Source: a virus | Taxonomy: Duplodnaviria; Heunggongvirae; Uroviricota; Caudoviricetes | DNA length: 64,000 nt | Virus record (IMG/VR): IMGVR_UViG_2724679293_000007 | Span: 34,885-98,884 of that record | Strand: one strand, 5' to 3' | Shown: in pieces, positions 7,885 through 46,813 of the stretch | Numbering within the stretch: position 1 is the stretch's first letter | Layout: the number at the start of each line of letters is the position of its first letter | The notes under the pieces: generated by a model | What the model saw: only the letters and a program-made list of their open reading frames with translations | Told to the model about the DNA's origin: nothing | Databases searched by the model: none | Made by a program: the position numbers and the translations under genes

Positions 7885-8462
7885 TGACATTCAGAATGAG
7901 TGAACAATCACGGACCATAAAAATTTATAATCTACTGGCTGGAACCAATGAGTTTATTGGTGAAGGTGATGCATACATTCCACCTCATACAGGTCTGCCT
8001 GCAAACAGTACCGATATTGCCCCGCCAGATATTCCGGCTGGCTTCGTGGCCGTTTTCAACAGTGATGAGGCATCGTGGAATCTCGTTGAAGACCATCGGG
8101 GAAAAACCGTCTATGACGTGGCTTCCGGCGACGCGTTATTTATTTCTGAACTTGGCCCATTACCGGAAAATGTCACCTGGTTATCCCCGGAAGGGGAGTT
8201 TCAGAAGTGGAACGGCACAGCCTGGGTGAAAGATGCAGAAGCAGAAAAACTGTTCCGGATCCGGAAGGCGGAAGAAACAAAAAACAGCCTGATGCAGATG
8301 GCCAGTGAGCATATTGCGCCACTTCAGGATGCCGTAGATTTGGATATTGCGACGGAGGAAGAGGCATCGTTACTGACTGCATGGAAGACATATCGGGTAT
8401 TGTTGAATCGTGTTGATACAGCAGTAGCAGCGGATGTTGAGTGGCCAGTCGCCCCGCAATAA
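7884..8462 (+). CDS. tail fibre assembly chaperone U'
   Basis: 192-aa ORF with ATG overlapping the Sv' stop; position and size typical of the U/U' chaperone. Confidence 0.8.
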
Positions 8463-24044: not shown

Positions 24045-24170
24045 TTTTTTTAGCTTCATATGCTACATTAACTTGCTTGCGTGCTAATGCATTTTCGGTT
24101 TATCCTAAACAGGCATCTTAGTAAAACGGATGCCGGGATTGGAACCCCGGATAATGCAAAAGGCGACACA

Positions 24171-24192
24171 GACGCCAAAAGCGTCTTTTTTT
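24171..24192 (+). terminator. rho-independent terminator/attenuator in the immI leader
   Basis: gacgccaaaagcgtc followed by TTTTTTT. Confidence 0.45.
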
Positions 24193-24199
24193 GTGTCAT

Positions 24200-24340
24200 G
24201 CCATCGCACAGCCATACGTAGCACATAGCTCCGAGATCAATGGTAGTGCTGGCTGGGCTGCCGAAAGGCAGGCCGGTTCCCTTTTGCGCCGGTAGTTCCA
24301 ACCCAGTCAGTGCTACCGCCATTGAGATTGGAACCTCACG
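24200..24340 (+). ncRNA. immI leader with c4-type antisense repressor RNA candidate
   Basis: Non-coding leader upstream of icd with mutually complementary segments (gtagtgctggctggg ... cccagtcagtgctac), as expected for the c4 RNA and its target sites; exact ends not determinable here. Confidence 0.35.
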
Positions 24341-27774: not shown

Positions 27775-27897
27775 TACAATCGTTGCGGGTGCTTGAGGCT
27801 ATCTGCTTCAGGCATGACCCGAAAAGCAGATAGAAGAAAGCCCCAGATAACATTACGCGTCCTGCAAGACGCTTAACATTAATCTGAGGCCATATCT

Positions 27898-28104
27898 ATG
27901 CTTAGCATACGTAGATTAGCCTCTTACCGACCAAAAGGTCAAGGAGAAGCAGGCTATGAAGCAGCAAAAAGCGATGTTAATCGCTCTGATCGTCATCTGT
28001 TTAACCGTCATTGTGACGGCACTGGTAACGAGGAAAGACCTCTGCGAGGTACGAATCCGAACCGGCCAGACGGAGGTCACTGTCTTCACAGCCTACGAAT
28101 CTGA
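27898..28104 (+). CDS. mok-like overlapping frame of the hok locus
   Basis: 68-aa ORF overlapping hok in another frame, as in hok/mok/sok loci. Confidence 0.4.
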   Translation: MLSIRRLASYRPKGQGEAGYEAAKSDVNRSDRHLFNRHCDGTGNEERPLRGTNPNRPDGGHCLHSLRI

Positions 28105-33368: not shown

Positions 33369-35096
33369 TTACTCAGAGTCACCGGCATCAATCGTGTCGC
33401 CGCTTATGAAGTTAAGCCCGCCTTTTTTGGCCATTGTCAGCGTTACACGAGTGAAGTAATCAGCGCCGTTGCGTGGGTGCATATCGTTGATAGCCGAACC
33501 CCACAGTGTGGTACGGTTGACCAGCGCCGGAGTGGTCGGATGCTGGAACGGGATAGCCGGGACAGCATCACCAGTCACGAAGCCTGCTTTACCCGGATTT
33601 TCATCACGGACGTAGCACAGCACATCCATCGAGCTGAACTGAATGTTCTCTGTCGTTAAGTTCTTACAAATACCAGCAGGTACTTCGTACACTTTCACGT
33701 TACCGAACAGGGTACCGATGTAGTGAACATACGGAGTCTGGATATAGTCTTCGGCTGGCTGGAAGAAATCCTTCGGCAACTGTTTGAAGAAAGATGCTGC
33801 ATCAGCACCAGCAAACATCCCCATCGCACCAGAAGATTTAACGCGCTCAATAATGTCGCGATATACAGTCTGGAATTTGCCACGAATGATGGTTGCCCAT
33901 ACATCAAAGGACTGGTTAACCGGCAGAGCGATGTCAAAGGTGTCGGTCGCAAGAGTACGCCAGATCATGATGCGAAGACGCAGCATATCCTGTTCATGAG
34001 ACAGGTATTCCTTCAGGGTGCGGAACTGTAGGGAACCCAGGTCCAGACCAAATTCACGCTGTGCTTCATACGCCGCCTGTACCGTGTGCTCAGCCGCGAT
34101 AACGAACTGGCTTGGGAACAGGGTGTATTTCTTCATTTCGTGGTTGATCAGCGGGATCAGCTCAGGAGCGGCTTCAATATTGATTTCCGTCTCAATTGCG
34201 ATCTCAGTGCCTTTATCCGGCGCTTTGGAGAACGACAGGGCAATCTGACCAATGTTGTAGTTCAGAGAGCAGGTAACAGTGATTTGCTCACCAGCAGCAT
34301 TAGTAAACGAGTGAAGTAGGCTGCCGGAACCGTTATCAACAACAGACTTAATACGGTTAACGTAGATGTTAGTGCGACCTTTTCGGATTGGTACATTCTG
34401 GCCTTCGAAGTCTTCCATCTTGAAGGTTGCGGTTTTGCTGGTGCCATCGGAGCTTGCCACCAGCACATAGCGGCGGCGTAACTGGCTGTACACACCGACG
34501 GATTGCATGTCCAGAACATCACCAGCAGCATAAGAACCAAAAGAGGAACCTGCCACGTTAAAGACTTCATAGATGTCGGACTGGTCACGCGTAACCGGAA
34601 TGAAGGTACACGCATCAGCGGTAGCTGCCCCCAACTGAACAGGCAGGATCATCGCGAGGAATAAAGGCAGACGCATAACACCGTCAGAAACGCTCATCAT
34701 CTCTGCTGCGACGGATTCCAGCATCGCTTTATTAGTGGCATCCATGCTATTGCGGGTGGACTCAATCAGGCAGTTTTCCAGCGTCTGGTGGCAGGAGGCC
34801 AGAATTTCCGGACGCGGCATAGATTTATGTGCTGCGGCGTAGTCAGCCAGTGCACTTGCCCACGCGGTAGCAATTTGAGCGGTGGCATTATCAGAGATAC
34901 CCGCAAAAATTGGGTCTTTACGTGCAGCTTCAAGGATAGATGCGGCACGCGCGGCATCATCTTTGATGAATTGGTTATCAGTACCGAACTGTGCTGTACT
35001 TGCCCAGCCAAGAACGGCTTTAGAGCGTTTTGCGATATCTGCAATACGATTCTGGTATTCGCGTAAGTTACTCAAGTTACTCTTCCTTAAACACAA
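33369..35096 (-). CDS. major head protein (P1 gene 23 position); start codon uncertain (TTG in track)
   Basis: 575-aa ORF adjacent to parS as in P1; followed by a hairpin. Confidence 0.55.
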   Translation of the reverse strand: MCLRKSNLSNLREYQNRIADIAKRSKAVLGWASTAQFGTDNQFIKDDAARAASILEAARKDPIFAGISDNATAQIATAWASALADYAAAHKSMPRPEILASCHQTLENCLIESTRNSMDATNKAMLESVAAEMMSVSDGVMRLPLFLAMILPVQLGAATADACTFIPVTRDQSDIYEVFNVAGSSFGSYAAGDVLDMQSVGVYSQLRRRYVLVASSDGTSKTATFKMEDFEGQNVPIRKGRTNIYVNRIKSVVDNGSGSLLHSFTNAAGEQITVTCSLNYNIGQIALSFSKAPDKGTEIAIETEINIEAAPELIPLINHEMKKYTLFPSQFVIAAEHTVQAAYEAQREFGLDLGSLQFRTLKEYLSHEQDMLRLRIMIWRTLATDTFDIALPVNQSFDVWATIIRGKFQTVYRDIIERVKSSGAMGMFAGADAASFFKQLPKDFFQPAEDYIQTPYVHYIGTLFGNVKVYEVPAGICKNLTTENIQFSSMDVLCYVRDENPGKAGFVTGDAVPAIPFQHPTTPALVNRTTLWGSAINDMHPRNGADYFTRVTLTMAKKGGLNFISGDTIDAGDSE

Positions 35097-42551: not shown

Positions 42552-44566
42552 AAGAGCTGTGCTATGGATCTGTTTGCAGTGGAATTGAAGCCGCGAGTAT
42601 TGCCTGGGAACCGTTGGGTATGCGTCCGGCGTGGTTTGCTGAAATCGAGCCTTTTCCATCTGCCGTTCTTGCGCACCGCTGGCCCCATGTCGCCAACCTT
42701 GGCGACATGACAAAACTTGCCAAAAAAGTCCTGGCTGGGGAAATCGAATCCCCTGATGTGCTCGTCGGGGGAACACCTTGTCAGGCATTCAGTATCGCGG
42801 GATTAGGTGGTGGGCTTGATGATGAGCGTGGCGCGCTAACTTTAAAGTATGTGGAGCTTGCAAATGCAATTGACGACAAACGGGCTGAGTCATTTCTCAA
42901 ACCAGCAGTTATCGTCTGGGAAAATGTCCCAGGAGTCTTGTCATCGGCAGATAACGCCTTCGGATGTTTCCTTGCCGGATTGGCTGGAGAAGATGCGCCA
43001 TTCGAACCAGGTGATCGACCTGAATCAGGAAAAAGTAACGCGTTCTGGCGGTGGGATGTCAAAACCGGTTGCCATGCTCCAAAGTGGCCGCAGTGTGGTT
43101 GTATTTATGGACCGCAGCGAAAAGTGGCCTGGAGAATCCTTGATGCCCAATACTTCGGAGTGGCACAACGACGCCGACGCGTGTTTGTTGTCGCAAGTGC
43201 TCGAACAGACCTCGATCCCGCAACGGTACTTTTTGAGTTCGAAGGCGTGCGCCGGAATATTGCGCCGAGCAGAGGCGAGGGGAAGGAAACTACCAGATAT
43301 ACTTCAAACATCGCTATCAGAACTTGCGATGATACAAACATAATTGCCATGGCACATGGGCAAGGAGGGGCTGAGATAAAAACCGATAATTCGGCACCAA
43401 CTTTGACATGTAACCATGAAGCACCAATTGTATTGCTCGGCGACGGTAGAATGCGCCGTCTTACCCCTGTCGAATGTGAAAGGCTGCAAGGTTTTCCTGA
43501 TGGACATACATTGATCCCTACGGAAAAGCGTAAAAAAGTTTCTTCAGATGAACTGGCATACCTTCGCAAAAACTATCCTGATTTGAGCGAAGAAGAGGCC
43601 GCGATGCTTGCAGCTGACGGACCGCGTTACAAAGCGATCGGCAATAGTATGGCGATACCAGTAATGCGCTGGATTGGCGATCGGATTACCAAGGCTGCAT
43701 GTCGGCAGAATGAAGGGAATGAAACAAAAGAGCGAAAAGTTAAACCAGCGGCAGAATTCGAACGGTCCATATTCAAATGGGCTGGTGGAAAATTTGGTGT
43801 TCTGGAACAAATCTTTCGCTATTTGCCAGAAGGGAAGCGCCTGATTGAACCTTTTGTCGGTGGCGGAGCTGTCTTCATGAATGCCGGATACAAGGAAAAT
43901 CTGCTAAATGATGTGAATGCTGACCTGATTAACTTTTACAAGACTTTGCAACGTGAGGAACGTTCACTTATCACTCTGGCGCATCGGTTTTTCCAGGACT
44001 ACAACACACAGGAAGGATACCTGGCAGTACGGAATGCGTTTAACAAACAAGTCTATGATGATTTACATCGCGCAGCGGCGTTTTTGTTCCTGAACCGACA
44101 TTGTTTTAACGGATTGACGCGTTACAACCAGGCCGGTGAGTTCAATGTCGGTTATGGGAAGTATAAAACTCCGTATTTCCCATTGCAGGAGATGGAAGCC
44201 TTCCTTGGTGCGGAAGGGCGTTCTGAGTTTGTATGTGGTGATTTTGCTGCGGTGATTGAAGCTGCCGGAGAAGGAGATGTCATTTTTTGCGATCCGCCAT
44301 ATGAACCGCTTCCAAATACAGAGGGATTCACGAACTATTCCGGTCATGACTTTAAGTTTGAAGAGCAAAAACGCCTGGTGTCTCTGTTGACGGATGCTCA
44401 TCGCCGAGGTGCAAAGGTTCTCATTACTAACAGTGGCGCGCCAAACATCAGAGAGCTTTATCATGACAATGGCTTCAGAGTGGAACCTCTTTTTGCCAGA
44501 CGTTCTGTGTCTTGTAAGGGGGACACTCGAGGTGTTGCTCATGACGTTTTAGGTATATTGCTCTAA
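42548..44566 (+). CDS. dmt: bifunctional DNA methyltransferase: N-terminal C5-cytosine MTase motifs, C-terminal Dam-like N6-adenine MTase
   Basis: [13 protein letters not shown] (motif IV, PCQ), VIVWENVPG (ENV); later EPFVGGGAV and FCDPPYEP (DPPY). Confidence 0.9.
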
Positions 44567-44573
44567 TAAATTT
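44557..44573 (+). promoter_or_regulatory. C1 operator, perfect match to ATTGCTCTAATAAATTT, overlapping the dmt stop codon
   Basis: Seen directly; directly followed by its own partial reverse complement (TTTATTAG). Confidence 0.8.
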
Positions 44574-44589
44574 ATTAGTGTAATATCGC

Positions 44590-44773
44590 CTCAATGAATC
44601 GTGATTTATAGAGCGATTTAGCTGTTAGCCGCGACAGGCGCGGCGGTAAGCATGGCTGGGCCTAGTCCTCCCAGACAAACCACCGAGTTGCCAGGTTGAC
44701 CATGCGCCTAAGTGGCAACGCCGAAGTGCGTTACGAGCTTCCAGTTTGCCCATCTTCGGGTGGGCGTTTTTTT
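44590..44773 (+). ncRNA. candidate structured small RNA (first unit of the ban-operon leader)
   Basis: Four successive hairpins (gccgcg/cgcggc; ctggg/cccag; gttgcca/tggcaac; terminator) and no ORF >15 codons. Confidence 0.35.
44748..44773 (+). terminator. rho-independent terminator
   Basis: gcccatcttcgggtgggc followed by GTTTTTTT. Confidence 0.6.
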
Positions 44774-44929
44774 CAGGGTTTTCGTCATGGTTAGCGACTT
44801 TGCGGCGGTTTAGAAACTGACCATTAAAGTAAATGCAAACGATAATCTGATGATGGTAGCGGCCTAAGAAGCCAGACGCCACGGGGTATGAGTCGTCCCC
44901 CGTCAAAAAATCGACCACAGAGTGTCCCC

Positions 44930-45545
44930 GTCTGTGTATTAGGGAACGGGGAGGCACAACAGGTAAGGGCATTCTCCCTTATGGGGCTTGGCTTAAATGC
45001 ATCGAGTGCTCTTACCGTTGTGATGAAGTGCAGCTCTTTGAAGCAACCAGAAGATAAGCATCTGGCTTCACAACATAAACCGCAGGAACGACCAATAAAC
45101 GGTAGTCCGTATGGAGAACACCCCGTTGAGGAAGAGGCCTGGCCGGAACCGTAACCGGCACTACAACGTTGAGAACATTGGCGTAACGGGGTCATATCCC
45201 AATCTATGAATAAATGTCGCGAGGCAGCGTGACAACCAGTGTTCTCAACATTGTGGTGAATGCACAGGCTGATGTGCCGCAACTACAGTAGTGCGCGCTT
45301 TGCGGGGCTTGCTACAACCCTGTGTCGGAGTTCAGCACCGACCATCACAGTTTGATTCTCTGGCATGAGCATAACGCTGAAATAAGTCCAGTCTGGTGCG
45401 GTCTGATCACCCGCCGTTAGCTCCACGAAACGGAGCACGTAACAGGTAAGAGCATTCTCCTGTAACGGGTTCATATCCCAATCTACAGGTCCACCAAGAA
45501 TGCTCTTTCCGTTGCGGTGAATGCGGCTAAGCGCACGCGGGGAAA
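44930..45545 (+). repeat. three paralogous structured elements (~100 nt each) in a non-coding leader
   Basis: Units at ~44955-45040, ~45160-45280, ~45440-45540 share a 14-bp stem (ggtaagRgcattctcc or gttgagaacattgg with its complement), a loop module aacgggKtcatatcccaatcta (units 2 and 3) and a 3' motif gttgYGRtgaaKtgc. Confidence 0.5.
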
Positions 45546-45665
45546 TGGTTATATCTGTCCATTATTTCTCCTTGTTTCCCCGTCCACGGTAGATAACCAG
45601 CCAAAGGATACCGGGAGGCACCCGGCACCGCAGCTTTTTTATTCGTTAAATAATGGAGTGAGAGG

Positions 45666-45902
45666 ATGCAGAACAATCCGAACAAATGTCGAACGCTATG
45701 GGTGCGGTTATATATTTATGCCGTCCTCTGTTTGATTGTGTCACTGGTTCTGTATGTTTGGCTTTTGCCAAATATGATCTCATCTAACAGCACAATACTT
45801 GTATTGTTGGGAGTCCTTCTCGCGCTCATTTACCCGGCTTTCGCAGTAGTCTTTTTTCGTGAAAAAACCAGGAAATTAATTAATGAAAAAAACGTTGATT
45901 AG
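45666..45902 (+). CDS. small two-TM membrane protein preceding the SPFH lipoprotein
   Basis: 78 aa; GGAG-type RBS; overlaps the next gene start. Confidence 0.5.
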   Translation: MQNNPNKCRTLWVRLYIYAVLCLIVSLVLYVWLLPNMISSNSTILVLLGVLLALIYPAFAVVFFREKTRKLINEKNVD

Positions 45903-46710
45903 TGCAGCGATTATTTTGGGTTCTTTATGTCTGACCGGATGCGATCGGGTAGAGCCAGGTAACGTAGGGATCAAAGTAAATAAGCTGGGGGATGATAAAG
46001 GTATCGGTGAAGTAGTTGGCGTTGGTCGCTACTGGACAGGCTTGAATACTGAAGTTTATATCTTCCCGACCTTTAAGCAAATGAAGACATACGATGAGCC
46101 GTTCAGCTTCCAGATGAGCGACGGAACAACCATTGGTTACCACATCGGCGTAGCCTACAAGGTTGATCCAGCAAAAGTCACAACGGTATTTCAGACCTAT
46201 CGCAAAGGTGTAGATGATATTACTGATACCGATCTACGCCAGAAGGTTGCAGATGCTCTGAACCGGTTAGCCAGCAAAATGACCACCGACAAATTTATCG
46301 ACGGTGGCAAATCTGAATTGCTTGATGCAGCCCTTAAAGACATTCAGGAAGAAATGACGCCAATCGGCATTCAGGTGATGAGCCTCTCTTATGTAGGTAA
46401 GCCAGAATACCCGCCAACAGTTATTGACAGTATTAACGCCAAAGTCACGGCAAACCAAAAAACCCTGCAACGCGAGCAAGAGGTCAAACAACGTGAAGCA
46501 GAGGCCAACATGCTGCGCGCGGAAGCTGCCGGACAGGCTGATGCTATTCGCACAAAAGCCCAGGCCGAAGCTGATGCCATTCGTTTACGTGGTGAAGCTC
46601 TGCGCCAGAACCCCGGTGTTATGGAGTTGGAAGCGATCAACAAATGGAACGGTACATTACCGCAGTATATGACCAGTAATACCGCTGTTCCGTTTGTTCC
46701 GGTGAAATAA
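45883..46710 (+). CDS. SPFH (band-7/prohibitin-like) domain lipoprotein
   Basis: Lipobox LCLTGC; SPFH-like core; C-terminal Ala/Glu/Arg-rich coiled coil (REAEANMLRAEAAGQADAIRTKAQAEADAIRLRGEALRQ). Confidence 0.8.
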   Translation: MKKTLISAAIILGSLCLTGCDRVEPGNVGIKVNKLGDDKGIGEVVGVGRYWTGLNTEVYIFPTFKQMKTYDEPFSFQMSDGTTIGYHIGVAYKVDPAKVTTVFQTYRKGVDDITDTDLRQKVADALNRLASKMTTDKFIDGGKSELLDAALKDIQEEMTPIGIQVMSLSYVGKPEYPPTVIDSINAKVTANQKTLQREQEVKQREAEANMLRAEAAGQADAIRTKAQAEADAIRLRGEALRQNPGVMELEAINKWNGTLPQYMTSNTAVPFVPVK

Positions 46711-46737: not shown

Positions 46738-46813
46738 GGCCCTTTAGCTCAGTGGTTAGAGCTGGCGACTCATAATCGCACGGTCACCGGTTCAAGTCCG
46801 GTAGGGGCCACCA
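46738..46813 (+). tRNA. tRNA with anticodon CAU, ileX-like (tRNA-Ile2; Met not excluded)
   Basis: Cloverleaf folded by hand: acceptor GGCCCTT/AGGGGCC, D-arm GCTC-AGTGGTTA-GAGC, anticodon loop CTCATAA, T-arm ACCGG-TTCAAGT-CCGGT, encoded CCA; near-identical to E. coli ileX as recalled. Confidence 0.9.

Follow-up and report, generated by a model that had tools for sequence, protein, structure and literature searches.

The stretch analyzed here (the window) is 64,000 nucleotides (nt) of the viral record IMGVR_UViG_2724679293_000007 (positions 34,885 to 98,884) and belongs to a P1-like phage-plasmid. Our subject is the leader of its ban operon, in which a reading of the letters alone (the sequence-only reading) had picked out three related, structured RNA-like units between positions 44930 and 45545. 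Over 44560-45670 the window is 100% identical to Escherichia coli plasmid AP026755.1 and about 98% identical to phage P1, the matches to both always being split into two pieces; P1 68670-69079 corresponds to window 44560-44970 and P1 69572-70199 to window 45005-45632. The leader transcript starts at Pban/Oban, the counterpart of the C1-controlled ban-operon promoters annotated in the P1 record (operator ATTGCTCTAATAAATTT; Table 1), so that the earlier assignment of the units to a C1-controlled ban operon leader agrees with the P1 annotation of Pban. Beyond the promoter, the "dicF-like region" of that annotation ends with a terminator-like hairpin, GCCCATCTTCGGGTGGGC (44749-44766), and a T run. 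The P1 record places tRNA-Asn, tRNA-Thr, and two minus-strand coding sequences, plp and upl, in the same stretch, with tRNA-Ile(CAU) and ban farther downstream. Within the Pban leader, the units precede both the tRNA at 46738 and ban.

At junction 44970/44971 the window is missing 439 nt of AP026755.1 (1912-2350), a relative that is otherwise identical, and the junction is interrupted by these 439 nt in every one of the best 12 PLSDB matches listed. Comparison of the window with AP026755.1 and P1 shows the missing segment to be flanked by 17-nt direct repeats (GCACAACAGGTAAGGGC) and to contain a fourth unit ("unit 0"), a spacer, tRNA-Asn, and tRNA-Thr. The window thus lacks the P1 genes trnA and trnT because of a 439-nt deletion between 17-nt direct repeats. 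The suspicion that the units sit where P1 carries extra tRNA genes proved exact: it is the trnA, trnT slot, lost with the deletion.

Table 1. Features of the ban operon leader (window coordinates)
Feature	Position	Strand	Basis
Pban promoter and C1 operator Oban	44557..44586	+	99% identity to P1 features 68651-68696
"dicF-like region" of P1 annotation	about 44681-44782	+	P1 misc_feature 68791-68892
tmRNA-like tag module	44776..44953	+	Alignment with three unrelated phages; pseudoknot covariation
P1 "plp"-like open reading frame (152 aa)	44824-45282	-	P1 annotation
Unit 1, connector hairpin	44955..45022	+	Model R1; fold z -2.3; repeats
Inter-unit module B1	45017..45167	+	Sequence; read by analogy with the STnc100 closing helix
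Unit 2	45159..45258	+	Repeat I1; fold z -4.9; SfV-type architecture
Inter-unit module B2	45251..45443	+	Sequence; hairpin covariation; geometry statistics
P1 "upl"-like open reading frame (63 aa)	45283-45474	-	P1 annotation
Unit 3, connector hairpin	45438..45516	+	Model R1; fold z -4.75; repeats I2, D2, D3
Module B3, STnc100-like	45511..45640	+	Rfam RF02076, 33 bits

Units 1 and 3 are built alike. In unit 1, a lower helix pairs CACAAC (44955-44960) with GTTGTG (45017-45022), the A at 44961 is bulged, and an upper helix (44962-44974 with 45004-45016) encloses an apical insert (44975-45003). Unit 3 pairs CGTAAC (45438-45443) with GTTGCG (45511-45516), bulges the A at 45444, and has as its upper helix a 14-nt inverted repeat (45445-45458 with 45497-45510, 93% complementary) around an insert that holds an anticodon-like hairpin (45459-45489; core ACGGGTTCATATCCCAATC, 45465-45483) followed by TCCACCA. 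The upper helix of both is formed by GGTAAGRGCATTC with GARTGCTCTTWCC; together with the 6-bp lower helix (YRCAAC with GTTGYR) below the bulged A, the helix totals 19-20 bp. Unit 2 is closed by a 23-nt inverted repeat, I1 (45159-45181 with 45236-45258, 87% complementary), whose arms are unlike those of units 1 and 3, and encloses an initiator-anticodon-like hairpin (stem 45182-45185 with 45205-45208; core ACGGGGTCATATCCCAATC, 45186-45204) and a second hairpin (45216-45233).

Three direct repeats connect the units. D1, the 3' arm plus GTTGYGRTGAA, is present in all of them; D2, AACAGGTAAGRGCATTCTCC, is the 5' arm common to units 1 and 3, whose arms also cross-pair with one another (repeats I3 and I4); and D3, the loop module GTAACGGGKTCATATCCCAATCTA, is 96% identical between units 2 and 3. 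Small hairpins flank the units: GCTCC-ACGAAAC-GGAGC (45420-45436) and GCACA-GGCTGA-TGTGC (45262-45277). Everything that the sequence-only reading had listed is present where it was placed, namely the stems, the shared loop, the 3' motif, the small 5' and 3' hairpins, and the shuffling of modules, with the 5' arm shared by units 1 and 3 and the loop by units 2 and 3; the stems are longer than first described, reaching 19-23 bp with the lower helix after the bulged A.

Minimum free energies (MFEs) were compared with those of dinucleotide shuffles. Unit 1 folds at -35.6 kcal/mol (z -2.3 on the plus strand, -1.3 on the minus strand), unit 2 at -47.1 kcal/mol (z -4.9 and -3.6), and unit 3 at -41.9 kcal/mol (z -4.75 and -3.5), so that the minus-strand fold is the weaker one for all three. 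By predicted helix length (19-23 bp) and pair counts, the units have the dimensions of an RNase III substrate (at least 20 bp or about two turns, mostly Watson-Crick). They are not tRNAs, as had been said from the start: neither ARAGORN nor Rfam RF00005 predicts a tRNA (cloverleaf, T-loop, anticodon arm) within 44560-45665. Searched against Rfam at gathering thresholds and at E values up to 10, units 1 to 3 are unmatched except for microRNA-model noise from long stems. The Y RNA-like family YrlA (RF02553) has no match in the window at E up to 10, and a weak match in P1 overlies two real tRNAs.

The repeats recur far beyond chance. A viral-contig scan with the 3' arm plus the 3' motif returned at least 119 stretches, and the same elements occur in more than 100 independent viral contigs; the family counts that follow are those among the matches listed. 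The common frame of these hairpins, here labeled connector hairpins after the role proposed below, is CACAAC-A-GGTAAGAGCATTG, an insert, and CAGTGCTCTTTCC-GTTGTG-GTGAAT, usually followed by a hairpin GCGCA-GGCTGA-TGCGC. Its consensus comprises a lower helix of 6-7 bp (YRCAAC/GTTGYR), an unpaired A, an upper helix of about 13 bp (GGUAAGRGCAUUS/SARUGCUCUUWCC) with a conserved U.U mismatch at one position, and a variable apical insert. Over 91 distinct copies, 86% of cells pair, compared to 36-62% in slid registers, with compensatory pairs such as GC59/CG14/UG6/UA5 and UG65/UA14/CG10. G.U outnumbers A.C by 173 cells to 18, an excess expected only if the plus strand is the strand that folds. Alignment A1, of 42 lambdoid copies, has 98% of cells paired (37-70% when slid). 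All copies with a tRNA within 1.5 kb, 70/70, are co-oriented with that tRNA.

A covariance model, R1, made from 42 lambdoid viral contigs with P1-like sequences excluded, matched unit 3 (45436-45526) with 62.0 bits (E 4.9e-13) and unit 1 (44953-45032), on the plus strand only, with 53.5 bits (E 5.9e-11). It also matched P1 unit 1 (48.3 bits, E 1.1e-09), phage lambda (60.7 bits, E 1.1e-12), and SfV (41.9 bits, E 4.2e-08), and minus-strand scores were 24 bits or less throughout. Unit 2 was not significant under R1, which recognized its 3' motif alone (45242-45265; 15.3 bits, E 0.14); comparison by eye puts its arms at about 75% resemblance to those of the family and shows compensatory changes. 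Compensatory changes also separate unit 1 of P1 from that of the window (GGGCAUUC/GAGUGCUC against GGGUAUUU/AAGUACCC), the insert being wholly different.

The units are conserved plus-strand RNA helices, oriented with tRNAs, in untranslated leaders. Covariation, the asymmetry of G.U over A.C, and the co-orientation with tRNAs all uphold the original claim of structured plus-strand RNA elements, the covariation being that of the 91 copies, of A1, and of the SfV-type copies described below. By sequence comparison, units 1 and 3 are members of an unannotated phage RNA family; unit 2, which has only the loop module and the 3' motif in common with them, is a diverged relative. The notion of three paralogues hence stands for units 1 and 3, which form one family, and fails for unit 2 beyond those two shared parts.

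In lambda the hairpin lies at about 44,785-44,872 of NC_001416, directly after tR', in an untranslated stretch of about 400 nt before gene S; in a global fold of the lambda leader it is not one uninterrupted helix, having a bulge and a mismatch. The matching slot of phage 21 holds tRNA-Asn and tRNA-Thr, the same pair as in P1, and a Klebsiella lambdoid phage has, between Q and the holin gene, a cluster of four tRNA genes (Asn-Phe-Thr-Arg) with the hairpin behind it. SfV has a small version of the hairpin, an STnc100-like segment, and a unit-2-like element downstream of cI, and Erwinia phage phiEa2809 (Ackermannviridae) has a covarying version. The arms are near-invariant in P1-like, lambdoid, and Ackermannviridae phages that are otherwise without nucleotide similarity. 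The leaders in question are the Pban leader in P1-like phages and, in lambdoid phages, the Q-dependent late leader between tR' and the lysis genes. A search of 185,579 species-representative genomes gave 45 matches versus about 60 expected by chance, the credible ones in Enterobacterales only. E. coli K-12 prophage DLP12 has no copy of the hairpin, and K-12 RNase III maps are therefore of no use here. In Salmonella phage SJ46 (L006, ~1660-1760), a deletion between two loop modules has fused the 5' arm of unit 2 to the 3' arm of unit 3; this natural mutant, a hybrid unit, has no long helix (MFE -32.6 versus about -53 kcal/mol).

The loop module shared by units 2 and 3 has a distribution of its own. 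A viral-contig scan for ACGGGNNCATANNCCAATC found it, as ACGGG-NNCAUAN-NCCAAUC, in at least 119 contigs (counts of the module are again those among the matches listed). The commonest variant, at 48 or more loci including SfV, contains CGGGCUCAUAACCC / CGGGCTCATAACCC, that is, 14 nt of the anticodon stem-loop of metZ, the E. coli initiator tRNA, and the identity spans the three G-C pairs. In the window, GGG/CCC pairs close a 7-nt loop with CAU at positions 34-36 (GUCAUAU in unit 2, UUCAUAU in unit 3). The exact initiator loop, CUCAUAA, is absent from the window units, where positions 32 and 38 differ, and is carried by SfV-type and L008-type copies. The closing stem of the module covaries, with at least eight versions.

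SfV-type copies form a three-way junction made of a 20-bp helix, the anticodon-like arm, and a second hairpin. Within the SfV-type sequences alone, and for that structure, the 34 pairs have 93.9% of cells paired versus 35-55% in slid registers and include nine compensatory pairs, a result that 1 of 500 shuffles equaled. Unit 2 has this architecture with different arms and unit 3 carries the module inside a family-type connector; in L008 it occurs outside connector hairpins too. Nearby phage tRNA(CAU) genes are of the Ile2 type, not the initiator type. A literature search returned no description of such a mimic of the initiator anticodon arm. It is tempting to speculate that the module acts as a decoy for factors that read that arm. 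As to the tRNA at 46738-46813, which ARAGORN calls "Met(CAT)", it is the P1 trnI gene, an ileX-type tRNA-Ile2 with the anticodon arm GGCGA-CTCATAA-TCGCA; this type is the commonest CAU tRNA among related loci.

The 88 distinct apical inserts listed fall into 57 unrelated sequence groups (median length, 53 nt) and are weakly structured (median z, -0.66), and at one and the same unit the insert differs completely between close relatives. Most therefore look like unconstrained spacers with tRNA-gene debris. A T-arm-like hairpin is found in 8 of the 57 groups, where 0.1 would be expected. The P1 unit 1 insert, GCGA-CGUCGGAGA-UCGC, 13 nt, AGGG-UUCGAAU-CCCU, is tRNA-like without an anticodon arm, and the same combination of D-arm and T-arm recurs in the inserts of L098 and L124.

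The flanks, by comparison of many contexts, have a fixed geometry. Of 108 distinct upstream contexts, 36% contain a perfect 5-bp hairpin placed so that exactly 7 nt separate its end from the bulged A, compared to 0-6% at other offsets, and 29 of the 39 hairpins so spaced have a 7-nt loop. The predicted layout corresponds to that of a T-arm followed by a 7-nt acceptor strand and a discriminator base, and the window fits it exactly (GCTCC-ACGAAAC-GGAGC at 45420-45436, ACGTAAC, and A, in that order). Among the other upstream contexts are real tRNA 3' ends (15) and terminators (11). On the downstream side, a 5-nt linker precedes a 5-bp hairpin with a 6-nt loop in 53 of 130 contexts; the stem covaries (GCACA/UGUGC, GCGCA/UGCGC, GCGUA/UACGU, UCGCA/UGCGA) around a fixed GRCUGA loop.

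Because the lower-helix sequence is shared, each segment between two units starts with GUUGYGG, ends with CCRCAAC-A, and can close on itself. B1 starts with GTTGTGATGAAGTGC and ends with a hairpin, CCGG-AACCGTAA-CCGG, followed by CACTACAAC, its two ends being complementary at 8/9 positions. B2 consists, in order, of ATTGTGGTGAAT, the hairpin at 45262-45277, the T-arm-shaped hairpin at 45420-45436, and the 7 nt ACGTAAC. B3 is closed by TGCGGTG (45513-45519) with CACCGCA (45626-45632), a helix that also forms in the minimum-energy fold; inside are GAAT, inner hairpins, and CCGGG-AGGCA-CCCGG (45611-45625), and a T run (45635-45640) follows before the gene at 45666.

B3 resembles STnc100 (RF02076) below the threshold of that family, with 33.0 bits (E 4.8e-05) over model positions 31-147 of 206 against a gathering score of 47; the P1 counterpart scores 33.4 bits. 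Window 45513-45632 shares with STnc100 the closing helix, the GAAU linker, the first hairpin, and the CCGGGAGGCACCCGG hairpin, and the STnc100 consensus likewise has a 7-bp closing helix with GGUG...CACC ends and a last hairpin that abuts the 3' strand. In contrast, the first 30 and last 59 model positions are unmatched in the window, and units 1 to 3 are outside the STnc100 family. STnc100, which we compared together with the PasD prophage small RNAs (sRNAs), lies in the late leaders of Fels-1 and Stx phages; it is a prophage sRNA that has been detected by reverse transcription-quantitative PCR. The statement that no described element matches was thus correct as regards Rfam and the units themselves, but it missed the plp/upl annotation of P1, the subthreshold STnc100 similarity, and the orthologous hairpin of lambda.

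Directly ahead of unit 1 lies a module resembling the tag-encoding part of transfer-messenger RNA (tmRNA), whose 3' part is the small 5' hairpin preceding that unit. It contains a hairpin (44807-44822), a resume-like ATAAAT, a 10-codon frame (44835-44867; GCA..TAA, ANDNLMMVAA*), and pseudoknot-like folds at about 44881-44916 and about 44916-44953. The module is about 73% identical to unannotated intergenic DNA beside the tRNA genes of Klebsiella phage MK54, Erwinia phage phiEa2809, and E. coli phage Bp4, and is common to P1, lambdoid Klebsiella phages, Ackermannviridae, and N4-like phages. Downstream of an invariant core, TTTAGAAAC..ACCA..AA..TAAAT, the frame opens with GCA AAC GA and runs for exactly 10 codons to a stop; the aligned tags are ANDNLMMVAA (window), ANEEMYLAVA, ANDNEFKVAA, and ANDDVVLMAA. 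Across 130 elements there are 17 tags, every one of 10 codons, and the Ala codons vary at the third position; start codons are absent throughout, and an in-frame UAG lies eight codons upstream in every element. A resume codon, a stop, and a degron-like peptide, as in a tmRNA reading frame, are all present. Both stems of the downstream pseudoknot covary (CAAGG/UGAGG/CGGGG and CCGA/CCAG/CCAA, with matching partners), as counted on the commoner form from other phages; the form of the window, which is that of P1, Bp4, and phiEa2809, was compared by eye.

These properties (a 10-codon frame without a start codon, a stop, and then covarying pseudoknots) are those of tmRNA, including its two-piece permuted form. 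The difference is that the tag module has no detectable tRNA-like domain and that the Rfam models stay below threshold. ARAGORN in tmRNA mode predicts no tmRNA in the window or in 373 loci, no tRNA-like domain with an acceptor stem, 3' CCA, and T-arm was found, and by eye no consistent acceptor pairing appeared in Bp4, L316, or L299. The Rfam tmRNA families score 11-33.5 bits, below their gathering scores, with tmRNA_permuted at 25-33.5 bits in five phages against 47. The tag of E. coli ssrA, ANDENYALAA, resembles the phage tags, the similarity being limited to the two ends of the tag frame.

Connector arms flank the tag module in many phages. Elsewhere the module is preceded by a promoter-like TTGACA-17-TAGATT of its own (e.g., L283, Klebsiella phage MK54, about 660-700), a near-consensus sequence seen in many lambdoid Klebsiella and Escherichia phages, which suggests that in the phages bearing it the module may be an independently transcribed RNA. 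We found no paper describing the module in our literature search. On either side of it in phage Bp4 (L285), ARAGORN calls a "tRNA-Ala(CGC)" at 510-581 and a "tRNA-Cys(ACA)" at 873-951; both are unmatched by the Rfam tRNA model and have D- and T-arm-like parts with poor acceptor pairing, and they may be tRNA-like partners rather than tRNAs. An N4-like viral contig with the tag module (L316, 2821-3573) gives two group I intron matches of 30-33 bits (gathering score, 50).

Taken together, the data lead us to propose, with a probability that we put slightly above one half (about 0.55), that the units serve as RNase III/RNase P-type connector hairpins between tRNA-shaped RNAs. The 19-23-bp duplex would be cut by RNase III, and the T-arm-shaped upstream hairpin, stacked on the lower helix, would offer RNase P a substrate like a tRNA minihelix, the upper hairpin acting in that step as leader and trailer. 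The products would be the segments between connectors: real tRNAs, STnc100-like sRNAs, and the tmRNA-like RNA. The GUUGYGG and CCRCAAC-A ends of a released segment would refold into an acceptor-like stem of 7-9 bp. The apical inserts would mostly be unconstrained spacers that collect tRNA-gene fragments, with at least one of them, the mimic of the initiator-tRNA anticodon arm in units 2 and 3, a conserved module in itself. At the DNA level, the repeats also act as recombination points through which units and tRNA genes are added or removed, as seen from the window deletion (17-nt repeats) and the SJ46 deletion (two loop modules).

Known systems provide partial parallels. RNase III sites in the lambda late (pR') leader were reportedly described in 1988 by Daniels, Subbarao, Blattner & Lozeron (Virology 167:568; reference 49 of PMC7547250), and we predict that they lie within the hairpin. 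The lambda late leader does hold a full-scoring copy (60.7 bits), a long imperfect duplex in a phage leader. What goes beyond the lambda case is the invariant arms, the hypervariable insert, the several copies in P1, and the link to tRNAs, a family-wide picture that we did not find in the searchable literature. Long stems mark precursor cuts in rRNA operons, in the RNase III-excised intervening sequences of 23S rRNA, and at the T7 early-mRNA sites. There too the stems are formed by flanking sequences and the excised or apical parts tolerate any sequence, whereas here one near-invariant stem, with tRNA-like geometry, is reused between all products. With tRNAs, permuted tRNAs, and YrlA decoys the units share T- and D-arm-like pieces, a 7-bp acceptor-like helix with an unpaired A, and an anticodon-arm mimic; they differ in having no ARAGORN or Rfam tRNA/YrlA match, no complete cloverleaf, and no encoded CCA.

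Several points weigh against this proposal. RNA cleavage at the units is a deduction from sequence. The arm sequence, with its U.U mismatch and bulged A, is far stricter than a generic RNase III site needs, which hints at a specific partner or at recent horizontal spread, though the 3' arm was partly fixed by the search pattern and its variation is understated. Some inter-unit segments do not have both complementary ends, and the P1 tmRNA-like module has no 5' GUUGYG. The interiors of unit 2 and of the SfV-type copies are conserved and covarying, so that a spacer role is wrong for these.

The roles of stem and insert may be the reverse, the hairpin being a scaffold and the apical insert the product, as in a primary microRNA, with stem cleavage freeing tRNA-mimic RNAs; for units 2 and 3 this would make the initiator arm a decoy titrating VapC-type anticodon nucleases, MetRS, or IF3 and the 30S P site. 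We regard both the general form and its application to units 2 and 3 as unlikely, even though much in the loop module speaks for them: its presence in at least 119 viral contigs, the 14 nt of metZ in its commonest form, the eight or more versions of its covarying closing stem, the SfV-type structure (9 compensatory pairs, 93.9% paired, 1/500 shuffles as high), and the tRNA-like inserts of P1 unit 1, L098, and L124. Most inserts, in 57 groups, are weakly structured and unconserved between close relatives; positions 32 and 38 of the window loops depart from CUCAUAA, L008 carries the module outside connector hairpins, and the putative decoy binding has no published mimic as precedent among the papers found. 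It is improbable, too, that the arms work mainly as DNA, as short homology "linkers" for modular exchange after the boundary-sequence idea, not as RNA signals. Deletions exactly at repeats would fit this, as would the swapped unit 1 insert between P1 and the window, which are near-identical relatives, and the "boundary sequences" that the CUS-3 annotation places on both sides of the corresponding region; but DNA homology does not explain the inverted-repeat complementarity, the plus-strand G.U, the compensatory changes, or the fixed orientation with tRNAs. A linker role is compatible with an RNA role, and the two can coexist. We consider it decidedly improbable that the region, a graveyard without a function of its own, consists of decaying tRNA genes and scars of recombination, in which only duplication and shuffling keep the repeats. 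The inserts do hold tRNA fragments, deletions and replacements between repeats are frequent among P1-like phages, and SJ46 exists with a hybrid unit that lacks stem complementarity. Decay would nonetheless leave unaccounted for the near-invariant arms in otherwise dissimilar phages (P1-like, lambdoid, Ackermannviridae), the compensatory changes with their plus-strand G.U bias, the strict co-orientation with tRNAs, and the precise T-arm-like spacing.

The annotation of P1 offers a further explanation, that the DNA encodes minus-strand proteins Plp and Upl and that the repeats are paralogous coding sequence. It can point to open frames of 152 and 63 codons, to the P1 annotation itself, and to PHROGs families built from such frames; we nevertheless hold it to be very improbable. 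The DNA annotated as plp/upl (P1 69572-70041, window 45005-45474) is the DNA of the units, read on the opposite strand. Its 14 variable sites among 12 P1-like sequences are split 4/7/3 over codon positions 1/2/3, so there is no third-position excess, and the frames are cut, replaced, or deleted in the window, P7, D6, SJ46, and Ro157c2YLVW, with no conservation across the P1-like phages. This DNA has its homologue in the noncoding late leader of lambda, the bias of G.U over A.C favors the plus strand, and the PHROG match of the plp-like frame spans 23 residues only. By these sequence criteria plp and upl, which show no coding signature, are most likely not genes.

Some known elements were considered and set aside. 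Integron attC sites came to mind for the YRCAAC/GTTGYR ends and the extrahelical base, but the core is not GTTRRRY, there is no integrase or cassette reading frame, and the plus-strand G.U pattern indicates RNA. Small mobile elements with terminal inverted repeats, of the miniature inverted-repeat transposable element or enterobacterial repetitive intergenic consensus type, were rejected for the unrelated interiors of the copies, and hammerhead and other small ribozymes for the lack of Rfam matches, the CUGAUG lying within a hairpin loop. Retrons, diversity-generating retroelements, and CRISPR mimics were dismissed with no reverse transcriptase and no direct-repeat array in evidence. The sequence UGCUCUUU is the core of the boxA antitermination signal of rrn operons. 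It is contained in the 3' arm (e.g., window 45501-45508, TGCTCTTT), and a 5-bp hairpin about 12 nt later gives a nut-site-like layout. A boxA/nut-like site was rejected since the arm is sequestered in the 20-bp helix, which leaves the coincidence without an explanation.

A bolder combination, which we think quite unlikely as a whole, would extend the connector proposal. The leader would be a series of tRNA-shaped RNAs that have one acceptor-like helix in common and are joined head to tail by excisable hairpins. The tag module would represent the coding part of a two-piece tmRNA that is new and permuted in a different way; GUUGYGG, the 5' acceptor strand that it lacks, would come from the next RNA across the lower helix of the connector. 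The anticodon-arm hairpins of units 2 and 3 would act either as decoys for nucleases directed at tRNAfMet or as modulators of initiation. In many other phages the tag module ends in a T-arm-like hairpin, where the window and P1 have the second pseudoknot; such a hairpin sits in the unit 0 insert, lost from the window, and a 7-nt CACAAC strand with an unpaired A follows the module in all forms. If the combination were true, phages as diverse as P1, lambdoid siphoviruses, Ackermannviridae, and N4-like podoviruses would possess ribosome-rescue, tagging, and tRNA-mimicry machinery of their own.

Downstream of the leader (45666-46710), a small membrane protein (phrog_1130) and a 275-aa lipoprotein (phrog_200), the latter labeled "serine protease" in AP026755.1, replace tciA, tciB, and tciC of P1. 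Rfam matches at gathering level elsewhere in the window are IS009 (8227-8425, 192.7 bits), the adjoining isrK and C4 antisense RNA (24113-24323, the immI region of P1), and the sok antitoxin RNA (27787-27961, 113.9 bits).

The kind of element to which the units belong, processing hairpins of phage leaders, is known. What is not described in Rfam or in the searchable literature is a reusable connector with tRNA-like geometry and hypervariable inserts, the initiator-anticodon mimic, and the tag template. Phage tRNA genes attract current interest as a codon supply and as a means of evading defenses that target tRNAs. The phage L genome paper notes that the late operon has tRNA genes at its 5' end and that whether the late mRNA releases them by excision is unknown. 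An RNA "connector" that is reusable and conserved in sequence accompanies the tRNA genes of P1-like and lambdoid phages, with one copy in lambda itself, in a leader to which no function has been assigned for decades. The data suggest that plp and upl are annotation artifacts, and the connector repeats explain a hotspot of modular variation among phage-plasmids. The two unannotated RNA modules, the initiator-arm mimic and the tag template, could bear on the conflict between phage and host over translation.

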